Below are positions 3,639-22,378 of a DNA stretch of 49,614 bases, one piece after another. The notes below the pieces were generated by a model that searched no databases, was not told the DNA's origin, and saw nothing but the letters and a program-made list of their open reading frames with translations. How positions within the stretch are numbered: position 1 is the stretch's first letter; each line of letters starts with the position of its first letter. The DNA comes from Candidatus Omnitrophota bacterium (GTDB taxonomy: Bacteria > Omnitrophota > Gorgyraeia > Aquiviventales > Aquiviventaceae). Location of the stretch: positions 1-49,614 of the forward strand of contig JACQRD010000067.1 in NCBI GenBank assembly GCA_016206675.1, in the 5' to 3' direction. A program made the translations under genes and the position numbers.

Positions 3639-4862
3639 ATGTACATCTACAAAACGGCGGTGATCGGGGCGGGGGCCATGGGAGCGGAGATCGCCCAGGT
3701 CATCAGCTTCAGCGGTATTCCCGTCCTCTTGAAGGACGTGGACCAGGCGCGAGTCGACCGCGGCCTGGACACCATCCGGAAGATCTACCAGCGGCGGGTC
3801 GACCGGGGCAAAATGACCCAAGATGAGATGGAGAAGAAGGTGCTGCTGGTTGCGGGGGTGACGAGCTATGACGCGATGAAGGACGTCGACCTGGCCATCG
3901 AAGCCGTGCCGGAGCAGCTGCCGCTGAAGCAGCAGATCTTCCGCGACTTGGATGGCGTCCTGCCGGAGTCGTCCGTCATTGCCTCGAATACCTCATCGCT
4001 GTCCATCTCCGCGCTGGGGGGTGCGACCAAGCGGCCGCACAAGGTCGTCGGGATGCACTTCTTCTATCCGGCCCACATCATGAAGCTGGTGGAGGTCATC
4101 CCCGGATTGGAAACCTCCGAGGACGTGGTGGGGGACATTCTCTCCTTTGCGGAAGGGTTGCGCAAGCTGCCGGTGCGCGTCAATGAATGCCCCGGGTTTC
4201 TCGTCAACCGCATCCTCATGCCGTACCTTAACGAAGCGGCCTTCTGCGTCCAGGAAGGCACAGCGACGACCCGACAGATTGATGAGGCCATGGTCGCCTT
4301 CGGATTTCCGATGGGACCGTTTACCCTCGTTGATAATTTGGGATTCGATGTCTGCCGCGAGGTGGTCAACGTCCTGCTTGATGCGTACGGCCCGCGGATG
4401 GAGCCGGCACCAATTTGGGAGCGGCTCTACGGGCTGAAGCGCCTGGGGGCGAAGGCCGGCGCCGGCTTCTATCTGTACGGGGAACGGGCCGGGCAGCCGG
4501 ATCCGGAGCTGGAGAAGATCCTTGCGGAGCTTCGTTCCAAGCCGCAGGGCGCGTCCGAATTCTCGGTCCATCGGCTGGTGCTACCGATGATCAACGAAGC
4601 GATCCGATGCTTGGAGGAGCGCGTCTGCACTGCCTCTGACGTGGATCTCTCAGTGATCGCGGGGCTGGGGTTCCCGCAAGCGAAGGGCGGCATTCTGCAC
4701 TATGCGGACGACGTGGGCCTTGAGGTAGTGCTCTCCGAGCTCAACGGACTCACCAAGCGCTACGGGGAGCGCTTTTGGCCCTCGCCGCTGCTGAAGCGGA
4801 TGGTCGCCGCCGGCCGGCTGGGCAAGAAGGCCAAGAAGGGCTTCTTCGAGTACACCGAATGA
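3639..4862 (+). CDS. 3-hydroxyacyl-CoA dehydrogenase
   Basis: 407 aa. Rossmann VIGAGAMGAEIAQV, HFFYPAHIMKLVEV and NECPGFLVNR motifs. Starts 4 nt after the thiolase stop. Confidence 0.9.
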   Translation: MYIYKTAVIGAGAMGAEIAQVISFSGIPVLLKDVDQARVDRGLDTIRKIYQRRVDRGKMTQDEMEKKVLLVAGVTSYDAMKDVDLAIEAVPEQLPLKQQIFRDLDGVLPESSVIASNTSSLSISALGGATKRPHKVVGMHFFYPAHIMKLVEVIPGLETSEDVVGDILSFAEGLRKLPVRVNECPGFLVNRILMPYLNEAAFCVQEGTATTRQIDEAMVAFGFPMGPFTLVDNLGFDVCREVVNVLLDAYGPRMEPAPIWERLYGLKRLGAKAGAGFYLYGERAGQPDPELEKILAELRSKPQGASEFSVHRLVLPMINEAIRCLEERVCTASDVDLSVIAGLGFPQAKGGILHYADDVGLEVVLSELNGLTKRYGERFWPSPLLKRMVAAGRLGKKAKKGFFEYTE

Positions 4863-4869
4863 ACCAGCA

Positions 4870-4980
4870 GGGGCGGATGGCCGCGGGAACGTTCCCGAGA
4901 GGGAGGCCCGGACACGCCATCGTCTCGTGGCGGGGAGAGGGAGGGTTCCCCGAGGGAACGACCCGCGGCCACAGCCGCCC
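4870..4980 (+). repeat. GC-rich palindromic intergenic element of about 111 nt, copy A
   Basis: Fills the gap between stop 4862 and start 4996. Terminal inverted repeats GGGCGGATGGCCGCGGG (4871-4887) / CCCGCGGCCACAGCCGCCC (4962-4980). Internal direct repeat GAGAGGGAGG x2 (4897-4906, 4935-4944). Hairpins CGCCA..TGGCG and GTTCCC-cga-GGGAAC. About 93% identical by hand alignment to the reverse complement of 22266-22378. Confidence 0.85.
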
Positions 4981-4995
4981 AGTTGTGGAGAAACG

Positions 4996-5787
4996 ATGGC
5001 GCTGACATCAAGGCAGAACGTCAAGGTCGCGGTCGAGGATCGCATCGCGGTGGTCACAATCGATCACCGGCCGGTCAACGCGCTGGACCGACAAACGCTG
5101 CAGGAGTTGGACCAGCTCTTCGACGCCATCCCGTCTGAATCCACCGTCAAAGTCGTCATCATCACCGGCGGCGGCTCCTTGGCGTTCGTGGCGGGGGCGG
5201 ACATTAAGGAGGTCAGCCAGTTCACCTCGATTGATGCCGCGAAGGAGATGACCACCCTGGGCCACTCGGTCTTCCTGAAAATGCAGCGCTGCCCGAAGCC
5301 GGTCATTGCCGCCATCAACGGGGTGTGCCTCGGCGGCGGATTGGAGTTGGCGATGTCGTGCCACCTGCGCATCAGCGGCGACCGGGCCCGGTTCGGCCAG
5401 CCCGAGGTCAACCTCGGCATCATGCCAGGCTGGGGGGGCACGCAGCGGCTGCCGCGGCTCATCGGCAAAGCCAAAGCGACGGAGTGGATCCTCACCGGCG
5501 ACGTGGTGATGGCGCAGGAAGCCCTGCGGTTGGGCCTGGTTAACCAGGTCGTCCCCCAGGATCAAGTGCTGAAAGCGGCGAAGGACCTGGCCCGCAAGAT
5601 CGCCGGCAAGGGCGCGGTCGCGGTGGCGCAGTCGCTGCGGGCCATCGAGGAAGGACTCGCTCTTCCGCTGGAGGAAGGCCTGAAACGCGAAGCCGAAGCC
5701 TTCGCAGCGGTGGCGGCCAGCGAAGACAGCAAGGAAGGCGTGAAAGCCTTTCTCGAAAAGCGCCAACCGCAATTTAAGGACCGATAA
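4996..5787 (+). CDS. enoyl-CoA hydratase (crotonase family)
   Basis: ATG 4996 gives MALTSRQNVKVAVEDRIAVVTIDHRPVNAL. Crotonase segments GGGSLAFVAGADI, GGGLELAMSCH, PEVNLGIMPGWGGTQRL. Track start 4927 would translate the repeat element and is rejected. Confidence 0.9.
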   Translation: MALTSRQNVKVAVEDRIAVVTIDHRPVNALDRQTLQELDQLFDAIPSESTVKVVIITGGGSLAFVAGADIKEVSQFTSIDAAKEMTTLGHSVFLKMQRCPKPVIAAINGVCLGGGLELAMSCHLRISGDRARFGQPEVNLGIMPGWGGTQRLPRLIGKAKATEWILTGDVVMAQEALRLGLVNQVVPQDQVLKAAKDLARKIAGKGAVAVAQSLRAIEEGLALPLEEGLKREAEAFAAVAASEDSKEGVKAFLEKRQPQFKDR

Positions 5788-14690: not shown

Positions 14691-15613
14691 GCAGCGCCGC
14701 CCCGGCCGGCTTCCGCTGCGGCTATGTGAGCCTCATCGGGCGGCCCAACGTGGGCAAGTCGACCATCCTCAACGCGCTGCTGGGGGAGAAGGTGGCGATC
14801 ATCTCTCCGAAGCCACAGACGACCCGGCAGCGGATTCTCGGCGTGCTGACTCGTCCTGAGGCCCAGGTGATGTTTCTCGATACGCCGGGGCTGCACAAGC
14901 CGGAGCACACATTAGGCCGCTACATGGTCGAGGTGGCCAAGGCCGCCATTGAAGAAGCGGACGTGCTGGTCGTGATCATCGACGGGCGCGCGGGCATCAC
15001 GGCGGAGGATGAGCGGGTGTTCTCCTCCGTCAAGAACGCCCTGCGCGAGGATGGGCGCAAGCGGCCGGTCCTGCTGGCCATCAACAAGGTGGACATCGCC
15101 AGCAAACCGAAACTCCTGCCGCTGCTGGAGCGCTGTGCCAAGCTGGGCATCTTCGATGACTGCATTCCGATTTCGGCGACGACGGGCGACCAGCTCAAGA
15201 TTCTCCTGAAGGAGATCGTCGCGCGCCTGCCGGAGGGGCCCCGCTGGTATGAGCCGCAACAGCGCACCGACCAGACGCGCGAGCAGATGGTCTCGGAGCT
15301 CATCCGCGAGCAGGTGCTCGCCGCCACGCGGCAGGAGGTGCCCCATGCCGTCGCCGTGCTGATCGACGAGCTCGAAGACCGGGATAAGGTGACCTCCATC
15401 CGGGCCACGATCCTGGTTGAGCGCGATGGGCAGAAGGCCATTGTGATCGGCCGGGGCGGAATGATGCTCAAGCAGATCGGGCAGGAGGCGCGCCGGCAGC
15501 TGGAGCGGCTGCTGGGCCGCAAGGTCTTCTTGGGGCTCTGGGTGAAGGTCGCCGAAGGCTGGCGCAGTGATGAACGCATCCTGCGCCAGCTGGGCTACCT
15601 CTCCGGATCGTGA
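14687..15613 (+). CDS. era: GTPase Era
   Basis: 308 aa. G1 GRPNVGKST, G3 DTPG, G4 NKVD, C-terminal KH domain (VERDGQKAIVIGRGGMMLKQIG). Confidence 0.93.
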   Translation: MSSAAPAGFRCGYVSLIGRPNVGKSTILNALLGEKVAIISPKPQTTRQRILGVLTRPEAQVMFLDTPGLHKPEHTLGRYMVEVAKAAIEEADVLVVIIDGRAGITAEDERVFSSVKNALREDGRKRPVLLAINKVDIASKPKLLPLLERCAKLGIFDDCIPISATTGDQLKILLKEIVARLPEGPRWYEPQQRTDQTREQMVSELIREQVLAATRQEVPHAVAVLIDELEDRDKVTSIRATILVERDGQKAIVIGRGGMMLKQIGQEARRQLERLLGRKVFLGLWVKVAEGWRSDERILRQLGYLSGS

Positions 15614-15623
15614 GCGTGAGGCA

Positions 15624-16175
15624 ATGACCAAGATTCGCGTCAAAGATTCGACGGTGATCTATCAAGGCCGGGTGATCCGGTTGATCCGCGAAACGCTCGA
15701 GGTGCGCGGCCACCGCATCGTGCGGGAGACCATCCAGCACCCCGGCGCGGTCGTTGTCGTTCCGATGCTGGACCACTCGCGCATCGTCTTCGTGCGGCAG
15801 TACCGCCGGGCGGTCGGCCGCTTCCTCCTTGAGCTGCCAGCCGGCACCCTAGAGCTGGGGGAGCGGCGCGACCTCTGCGCCAAACGGGAGCTTGAGGAGG
15901 AAACCGGCTGGAAGGCCAAACATCTCACACGGCTGGGCCAGTTTTACGCCGCCCCGGGTTTTGTCTCCGAGCAGATGACCATCTTCCTCGCCACGGGGCT
16001 CACACCGGTGCCACCACGTCCTGAGCCTGATGAGATGGTCACTCCGGTCATCCTCTCCCTGCGCGAGGCGCTGCAGCGCATCCGGACCGGCTCCATCTGC
16101 GACGCCAAAACCATCATCGGCGTCCTCTTCACTGCCGCCCGAGGGAACGGCCCGCGGCCACAGCCGCCTACTTGA
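15624..16175 (+). CDS. NUDIX hydrolase (ADP-ribose pyrophosphatase-like)
   Basis: ATG 15624 gives MTKIRVKDSTVIYQG. Nudix box GTLELGERRDLCAKRELEEETG. The last ~12 codons are read from a partial copy of the 111-nt element. Confidence 0.85.
   Translation: MTKIRVKDSTVIYQGRVIRLIRETLEVRGHRIVRETIQHPGAVVVVPMLDHSRIVFVRQYRRAVGRFLLELPAGTLELGERRDLCAKRELEEETGWKAKHLTRLGQFYAAPGFVSEQMTIFLATGLTPVPPRPEPDEMVTPVILSLREALQRIRTGSICDAKTIIGVLFTAARGNGPRPQPPT
16138..16168 (+). repeat. partial copy C (3'-terminal 31 nt) of the 111-nt element
   Basis: CCCGAGGGAACGGCCCGCGGCCACAGCCGCC is identical to the 3' end of the minus-strand copy at 22266-22378 and differs at one position from 4950-4980. Confidence 0.8.
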
Positions 16176-22229: not shown

Positions 22230-22258
22230 ATTATACGGGCCTTCCGTCGGTAAATCAA
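22230..22258 (-). promoter_or_regulatory. candidate sigma-70 promoter TTGATT - 17 nt - TATAAT, 11 nt upstream of the ATG
   Basis: The minus strand reads cTTGATTtaccgacggaaggcccgTATAATcagctatcacgATG. Perfect -10, 4/6 -35, and no Shine-Dalgarno before ATG 22218. Confidence 0.45.
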
Positions 22259-22265
22259 GTCAGGA

Positions 22266-22378
22266 GGGCGGCTGTGGCCGCGGGCCGTTCCCTCGGGGAA
22301 CCCTCCCTCTCCCCGCCACGCAACGAGGGCGTCTCCGGGCCTCCCTCTCGGGAACGTCTCCGCGTCCATCCGCCCCCC
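22266..22378 (-). repeat. 111-nt GC-rich palindromic element, copy B
   Basis: The reverse complement aligns to 4870-4980 with about 8 differences. Lies between the GH57 stop (22392) and the ino1-like start (22218). Confidence 0.85.

Follow-up and report, generated by a model that had tools for sequence, protein, structure and literature searches.

The 111-nt element that lies between the genes for 3-hydroxyacyl-CoA dehydrogenase (hbd) and enoyl-CoA hydratase (ech) is most probably a non-autonomous mobile hairpin repeat, that is, an interspersed DNA repeat that is MITE-like in kind and most like a REPIN. The window analyzed, 49,614 nt in length, is contig C51 of the MAG of an uncultured Omnitrophota (G000; 1.10 Mb in 97 contigs, 65% GC, 78% complete). 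The first-pass annotation had offered two readings of the element, a REP/MITE-like repeat or a structured RNA module, and the former is favored by approximately 20 dispersed copies, the insertion seen relative to orthologous loci, the occurrence in both orientations and the lack of a matching Rfam family.

The hbd ORF occupies positions 3639-4862, with the stop codon TGA at 4860-4862, and contains the 3HCDH_N and 3HCDH domains. The ech gene starts with the ATG at 4996-4998, and the protein translated from 4996 has an ECH_1 domain (E = 1e-68). The spacer between the two genes is 133 nt long, of which the element (GGGGCGG...GCCGCCC, + strand, 4870-4980) takes up 111, leaving 7 nt on the left and 15 nt on the right. 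The description of the gap in the fad operon as one GC-rich element of 111 nt was therefore borne out. The Shine-Dalgarno sequence of ech, GGAG at 4987-4990, lies outside the element, within the 15 nt on its 3′ side, and AGGAG-type sites are found at the same place in relatives.

The internal features that had been read from the sequence were recovered at the level of single bases. The imperfectly inverted termini form an outer stem, in which the 5′ arm GGGGCGGATGGCCGCGGGAAC (4870-4890) pairs with the 3′ arm GACCCGCGGCCACAGCCGCCC (4960-4980). The mirrored hexamers are GGGAAC at 4885-4890 followed by GTTCCC at 4891-4896, and GTTCCC at 4945-4950 followed by GGGAAC at 4954-4959. The purine box GAGAGGGAGG occurs at 4897-4906 and again at 4935-4944. 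GTTCCC and box 1 together (4891-4906) form the left part of a nearly invariant inner core, which pairs with 4940-4959 in the long hairpin; the 23 core-left columns hold only four minority bases among 13 G000 copies. As judged from its sequence, the same segment can alternatively fold into a small local hairpin, UUCCC-GAGA-GGGAG. Box 2 and the adjoining GTTCCC-CGA-GGGAAC (4935-4959) form the right part of this core and are invariant. Between the two parts stands an apical hairpin (4915-4932) composed of CGCCA (4915-4919), the loop tcgtctcg (4920-4927) and TGGCG (4928-4932); its tip is hypervariable, and it is deleted in short forms of the element.

The predicted RNA fold of the + strand has an energy of −73.7 kcal/mol (z = −5.8), and none of 200 shuffled sequences was as stable; the fold of the − strand reaches −69.0 kcal/mol (z = −5.0). 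In an alignment of 23 sequences (A1), the long hairpin consists of 32 pairs, and 97% of the cells are paired. Both partners have changed at four of these pairs, namely columns 3/120 (GC/UA/CG), 16/105 (CG to GC), 22/100 (CG to UA) and 45/74 (CG to GC). The covariation score and the paired fraction were reached by none of 500 shuffles, and the paired fraction fell to 45-60% in controls in which the pairing was slid. This pattern in the aligned copies shows that the hairpin is maintained by compensatory substitutions. The outer stem varies by subfamily and genus with such changes (columns 3/120 and 16/105), and the termini, GGGGCGG.TGG.CGCGG pairing with CCGCGGCCA...CCGCCCC, differ among subfamilies and stay complementary.

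The variation is distributed unevenly along the element. Hardly any change is seen in approximately 54 inner columns, which comprise both GAGAGGGAGG boxes and the GTTCCC/GGGAAC pairs, while the apical loop and the termini vary. Among the 13 full-length G000 copies, 32 minority bases fall in 25 apical-loop columns, as against 8 in 54 core columns. Half of these eight core changes are in a single copy (C43:2544-2655), in which box 2 and the adjacent hairpin loop have undergone four A-to-T changes, GAGAGGGAGG to GTGTGGGTGG and CGAGGG to CGTGGG, with the rest unchanged. In the G013 lineage the apical stem is swapped for GGCGC/GCGCC. Seven columns of the stem have G.T or T.G in place of Watson-Crick pairs, and a single cell has A.C; this wobble asymmetry means that the hairpin is better formed on the strand that carries the purine boxes. 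In all 24 copies compared, the purine-box strand is also the one with the more stable fold, by a mean of 7.6 kcal/mol, although this difference is weak evidence because G-rich strands fold better in general. A G-quadruplex was considered and rejected: the 3′ half of the G000 copies has four G-tracts, the G013 copies have only three, and the feature is not conserved.

Searches with blastn and nhmmer gave 19-21 matches on more than 15 contigs of G000, that is, about 20 dispersed copies, a number and spread that fit the REP/MITE-like reading. Several copies are cut by contig ends, as would be expected of repeats at which assemblies break. The element is 109-114 nt long, or 141 nt in one subfamily, and contains no transposase gene. 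The copy in the hbd-ech spacer belongs to subfamily A and scores 120 bits with the covariance model described below. A second full-length copy of subfamily A was found on the − strand at 22266-22376 (92.8% identity, E = 2e-42), in agreement with the roughly 93% noted earlier; it lies between the stop codon of a GH57 gene (22392) and a promoter-like site of the inositol-1-phosphate synthase gene. The 3′-terminal fragment at 16138-16168 (+ strand) was likewise confirmed, as a 37-nt match of 92% identity.

The alignment gives a common core, CGTTCCC-GAGAGGGAGG-CCCGGACACGCC-loop-GGCGGG-GAGAGGGAGG-GTTCCCCGAGGGAACG, which is shared by three subfamilies with different but self-complementary termini. 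Subfamily A, with eight full copies, has the termini GGGGCGGATGGACGCGG and CCGCGGCCACAGCCGCCCC; subfamily B, with two copies, has GTGGCGGGTGACGCGG and CCGCGGCAGGACCCGCCAC; and the three 141-nt copies of subfamily C lie within a further palindrome, GCGGGTTCCGG...CCGGAACCCGC. The copy at C86:324-397 and the one on C39 lack the DNA between the boxes, which, from their sequences, looks like deletion between direct repeats. Of the C59 copy, no more than the 3′ two-thirds are left.

A BLAST search of the family's 35 genomes gave 20 matches in G000, 9 in G013 and 2 partial matches at one short-form locus in G016. A covariance model (R1), built from 23 copies and run on 37 genomes of the order with E-values that are rough, added six divergent short forms of about 83 nt in G044 and one in G000 (C53, with subfamily-B termini); the G044 short forms are probably related to the family. 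The family is thus present in 4 of the 37 genomes of the order, and relatives of the element outside G000 in 3 of 36. Among the four genera with the highest ECH identity, G045, G002 and G010 have no match and G044 has weak short forms only, so the distribution is patchy. In a genome contig database, the exact core 28-mer has no match. Elsewhere, a core 21-mer, GAGGGAGGGTTCCCCGAGGGA, was found only in 'Candidatus Omnitrophica bacterium CG11_big_fil_rev_8_21_14_0_20_63_9' and in one archaeal match. The loci of the former do not differ from those of G013, a member of the same family as G000. The archaeal match was rejected as a copy, being chance or convergent: it lies inside a KaiC/RadA-like ATPase gene, where it encodes EGGFPEG (L031, archaeal MAG contig CAYRIP010000063.1; L053, Ga0315534_1074330). 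Metagenome contigs contributed a third lineage (Ga0247727) and short forms without the apical hairpin, and the plasmids, phages and viral contigs searched gave no match.

At gathering thresholds, the only Rfam match in the window is a tRNA, and the best matches by E-value at the element score 14-16 bits against cut-offs of 72-92, so no known family claims it, as the REP/MITE-like reading allows. The element also has no similarity to the ATGA-junction and heptamer repeat families of the same window; it contains no tandem heptamers, rebuilds no ATGA overlaps and has no bridging mini-ORF.

The evidence for mobility comes from comparisons between genera. No contig above approximately 85% identity, which could have provided filled and empty alleles of close strains, was found in the metagenome contigs searched. 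The orthologous hbd-ech junction was recovered from 13 other genera. It is only about 11-30 nt long in 9 of the 13, typically a stop codon, AGGAG and a start codon; in G045, one of the two closest genera by ECH identity, it reads TAGACAGGAGATCACATG. The junction of G013 is also empty, with a length of 15 nt, even though the family is present elsewhere in that genome. This comparison of the fad operon across relatives, which had been proposed as a check on the element, shows that the element entered the hbd-ech spacer secondarily. In the reverse direction, at the one site inspected, the G000 site (C27) orthologous to an element-occupied locus of another lineage (L045) is without the element. 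The family was amplified within each lineage.

The hbd-ech junctions of the other four genera (L020, L021, L025 and L027) hold unrelated repeats, which are GGTTACC/GGTTACT heptamer arrays, GTGACAT-type arrays and other palindromes. Hairpin repeats of different families have thus settled in this spacer again and again.

At the locus of the 3′ fragment, the NUDIX orthologues of G013 and G045 end in ...LFA(E/H)R(L/I)(L/F)A*, followed by GCTTGAAGC. The G000 protein reads through the fragment (...TAARGNGPRPQPPT*) into the same CTTGAAGCG. The identical right flank and the element-derived tail indicate that the fragment replaced the last codons of the NUDIX gene. In the resulting ORF (15567-16175, of which 16138-16175 is the altered part), the tail RGNGPRPQPPT stands in place of (E/H)R(L/I)(L/F)A, and the ancestral TGA is reused. 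A subfamily-B copy of exactly 111 nt is found in the gene for apolipoprotein N-acyltransferase (lnt; contig C2:2500-2610, locus L077, within the ORF C2:1921-3666), where it is read in frame on the opposite strand and adds 37 codons, AGPAAERSLGEPSLSPPRSNGVSGPPSRERLRVTRHP. These approximately 37 residues are missing in nine orthologues and lie in a variable loop between conserved blocks.

Yet another repeat may be the source of two peptides in the same Lnt protein, TRDPSHESRVSS and TRDPSLESRVSS, which are almost identical. In the G013 lineage (L038/L057), a 437-aa GC3-supported ORF reads through the copy at L038:1994-2097 near its 3′ end, and to judge from the reading frame this copy may be part of a protein tail.

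The location of the copies was assessed against gene calls from a GC3-based ORF filter, by which 86% of G000 lies in GC3-supported ORFs. All but two G000 loci are intergenic; apparent ORF overlaps at C29, C43, C39 and C51a were dismissed as artefacts of upstream alternative start codons. The orientation agrees with the direction of the neighboring gene in 11 of 19 copies and with the GC skew in 9 of 19, which is no bias, and mixed orientations are also seen in the G013 and Ga0247727 lineages. No replication-strand bias was detected with GC skew, itself a weak proxy. Random placement with respect to genes and strand had been named as an outcome that would refute the first-pass inference; the orientation is indeed unbiased relative to genes and GC skew, and the location is almost always intergenic.

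No consistent direct repeat that could be a target-site duplication was found at about 15 copies, including the empty-site comparisons at hbd-ech, NUDIX and lnt, and no conserved target motif could be defined. The right flank has T as its first base in 11 of 15 copies and opens with TTG in 5 of 15. The CTTGAAGC at the NUDIX site is ancestral and so belongs outside the element. Beyond that first base, the right flanks of the copies show no enrichment in T and no U-tract. A terminator scan gave no terminator-like site at either full-length copy in the window, each being a GC-rich hairpin without a T/U run.

A near-consensus sigma-70-like site, TTGATT-17-TATAAT (22230-22258, − strand; one site against 0.0 expected), follows copy 2 at a distance of 7 nt and immediately precedes the inositol-1-phosphate synthase gene. 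It belongs to the flank and not to the element. By eye, TTGAGG-17-TAGAAT and TTGAAA-18-CGTAAT abut the copies on C39 and C1.

The duplicated purine boxes, which had been singled out as unusual for a plain REP, proved to vary less from genus to genus than any other part of the element. This conservation is real, because the search pattern had no part in selecting box 1 or the copies of G013 and G016. A host-selected cis-acting RNA module, which would act in mRNA stability or processing or would hold ribosomes through its GGAGG boxes (standby or anti-SD), could account for boxes that are invariant across genera, for the very stable hairpin, for wobble positions and folding energies that favor the purine-box strand and for the position of box 2 in or near the apical loop in short forms. 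The boxes themselves, however, do not behave as translation signals. In the stretch read (4700-5150), the 15 nt that follow each box contain no ATG, GTG or TTG, and neither GGAGG has a start codon at the 5-10 nt of a Shine-Dalgarno sequence, since ech uses its own GGAG outside the element; the boxes are not ribosome-binding sites of any ORF, and the ribosome-standby idea is left unsupported. They are also mostly base-paired in the predicted long hairpin. Copies are antisense to the flanking genes as often as sense, so that about half of them offer the C-rich complement to the local mRNA; copy 2 precedes a promoter-like site instead of lying within a transcription unit, and the lnt copy is translated on the C-rich strand. 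The full-length element is, furthermore, missing in most relatives, including all four of highest ECH identity, and the strand difference in folding carries little weight for the reason given above. The structured-RNA reading of the first-pass annotation is thus considered unlikely.

Indifference to orientation would be natural for a function in double-stranded DNA, and the nearly invariant boxes are direct repeats on one strand, approximately 38 bp apart, which could make the GAGAGGGAGG pair the recognition sites of a dispersed host DNA-binding protein, as in REP/BIME with gyrase or IHF. Such a site would hardly be expected to have its hairpin kept up by compensatory changes, and the short forms alter the spacing of the boxes or delete one of them; moreover, the family is limited to 4 of the 37 genomes of the order, and its sites are not common to the lineages. 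This explanation is quite improbable, more so than the RNA module. The strand-specific wobble pairs and the lack of target-site duplications would also suit a retro-mobile, SINE-like element with an RNA intermediate, which would explain both the strand asymmetry and the retention of the 3′ end in the truncated copies (C59, L049 and the window fragment at 16138). Against this, only three truncated copies are of this kind, one 5′ fragment occurs as well (C87), evidence of an internal promoter is lacking, and RVT_1 is absent from G000, G013, G016 and G044, which makes a retro-mobile origin very improbable.

The element that results from this weighing, a non-autonomous mobile hairpin repeat, can be compared with several known systems. 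REPINs, which are REP doublets known from Pseudomonas, E. coli and others with RAYT transposases, have conserved regions, a variable spacer and compensatory changes, and they form clusters when they insert into other repeats or beside them (Bertels & Rainey 2011, PMC3116915). The present element resembles them in its length of about 100 nt, its non-coding, intergenic and multi-copy nature, its long hairpin with compensatory changes, its clustering with other repeats and its lack of a classical target-site duplication. Its two conserved regions, read from the sequence, each appear to contain a small palindrome (TTCCC-GAGA-GGGAG and TTCCC-CGA-GGGAA), and the two form a roughly inverted pair. RAYT-like Y1 genes are, in addition, common in this bacterial family. 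It differs from REPINs in that no RAYT gene is next to any copy and none is present in the G000 assembly, that the core has an extra direct purine box, which gives strand asymmetry, and that there are about 20 copies here instead of hundreds. No single copies corresponding to REP singlets were observed. The GTAG or CGTC tag of REP sequences sits at the head of the REP. GTAG is absent from the element, and CGTC is found only in the variable loop of some copies; this tetranucleotide tag is described as conserved (PMC3733652).

With MITEs, the element shares its small size (below about 400 bp), multiple copies and terminal inverted repeats; it has no target-site duplication, and no parent IS or matching transposase was found for it. 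In classical MITEs the terminal inverted repeats are bound by the transposase, whereas here the opposite holds and the termini are the least conserved part. ERIC (~127 bp) and the Neisseria Correia/NEMIS elements are, like the present one, imperfect palindromes of 100-150 bp that are intergenic or co-transcribed, occur in either orientation and fold in the mRNA (PMC3184786), and ERIC also has no dedicated transposase known. Target duplications of the TA type and conserved terminal inverted repeats are typical of ERIC-type and Correia elements (PMC3184786), whereas the present element shows no target-site duplication and is least conserved at its termini; there is also no sequence similarity between them. 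The Rickettsia palindromic elements (RPE; Ogata et al. 2000, in PMC3184786) are palindromes of ~105-146 bp that lie in frame in genes or extend protein ends, which recalls the copies in the Lnt loop and the NUDIX tail. However, only one or two of the approximately 20 copies are in coding DNA, so the present family is mainly intergenic, and sequence similarity to RPE is again lacking. The element behaves like a REPIN or an ERIC-type MITE. As it has strict membership in neither the MITEs nor the REPINs and its sequence has no match in the collections searched, it represents a new family of a known kind of selfish repeat. The literature searched holds no link between Omnitrophota and such repeats.

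Of eight transposase and reverse-transcriptase families tested, Y1_Tnp was the only one present in the carrier genomes; IS110, TnpB, DDE_Tnp_1, rve, DDE_3, Mutator and RVT_1 were absent from these incomplete assemblies. The carriers that have it are G013, G016 and G044, and within the family as a whole it is present in 25 of 35 genomes. The model closest to the G013 and G016 proteins is that of REP-associated tyrosine transposases, NF047646, which they match with 64-74 bits, below its cut-off of 80. No Y1 gene was found in the 78% of G000 that is assembled, no element or palindrome lies within approximately 1.5 kb of the Y1 genes of G013 and G016, and no longer element with matching ends that could be a parent IS was found.

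Under the mobile-repeat reading, the core in its hairpin context would be what a copying enzyme, acting in trans, recognizes. Because only intact copies would give rise to new ones, the positions essential for copying would be preserved, and copies with a damaged core would leave no descendants, so that the uneven variation could arise without any host function. Alternatively, the core may be invariant because each copy is under selection for some host function. Recognition probably takes place on one DNA strand, since nearly all stem positions that are not Watson-Crick pairs are G.T on the purine-box strand. This wobble asymmetry, together with the missing target-site duplication, would fit the single-strand chemistry of HUH (Y1) enzymes. 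The only candidate enzyme found is a RAYT-like Y1 (HUH) tyrosine transposase, no gene for which is adjacent to a copy, and mobilization by such an enzyme in particular is possible but rather doubtful.

The core is nearly invariant in every copy of the four genera, while its surroundings change. The strand-asymmetric core, with its two GAGGGAGG boxes and two TTCCC/GGGAR hairpins, might have a function of its own and travel with the repeat as a module, such as a site for a single-strand-specific protein or an anti-SD site (16S 3′ end), used by the host or by the element. A related version would be REPIN-like, with the recognition element in the middle instead of at the ends and an unlinked RAYT-like enzyme. 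These readings, taken together, amount to a slim prospect.

In the fad operon, the element would be co-transcribed as a strong hairpin (about −72 kcal/mol) that has no terminator tail and leaves the Shine-Dalgarno sequence of ech free, and this copy is probably a near-neutral, tolerated passenger. The 133-nt gap in the operon would then be explained by a passenger insertion and not by a regulatory RNA. With its consensus, subfamilies and the covariance model R1, one more defined family joins the many hairpin repeats that crowd small Omnitrophota genomes, and the Lnt loop and the NUDIX hydrolase tail illustrate how repeats remodel proteins here. Which bases are probably needed for copying can be read from the pattern, in which the core is invariant, the stem is compensated and the loop is free to vary. 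The element also offers a concrete substrate for the question of whether the widespread orphan RAYT-like Y1 enzymes of the phylum mobilize hairpins.

A second, unrelated palindromic repeat of about 180 nt was observed in G000, with the arms GTGCCGCCGGCACCC..GGCGAGCGAATATGCGGGTC and at least 17 copies of 79-94% identity; it has no Rfam match. Its copies include C86:108-287 (L058), C94:5725-5903, C70:8281-8477, C87:5482-5666, C24:14155-14261, C46:3918-3976 and approximately ten more. At six or more loci it lies 0-60 nt from the element, which far exceeds the random expectation for about 900 intergenic gaps, and on C86 a copy of the element stands on either side of it, the two being in direct orientation.
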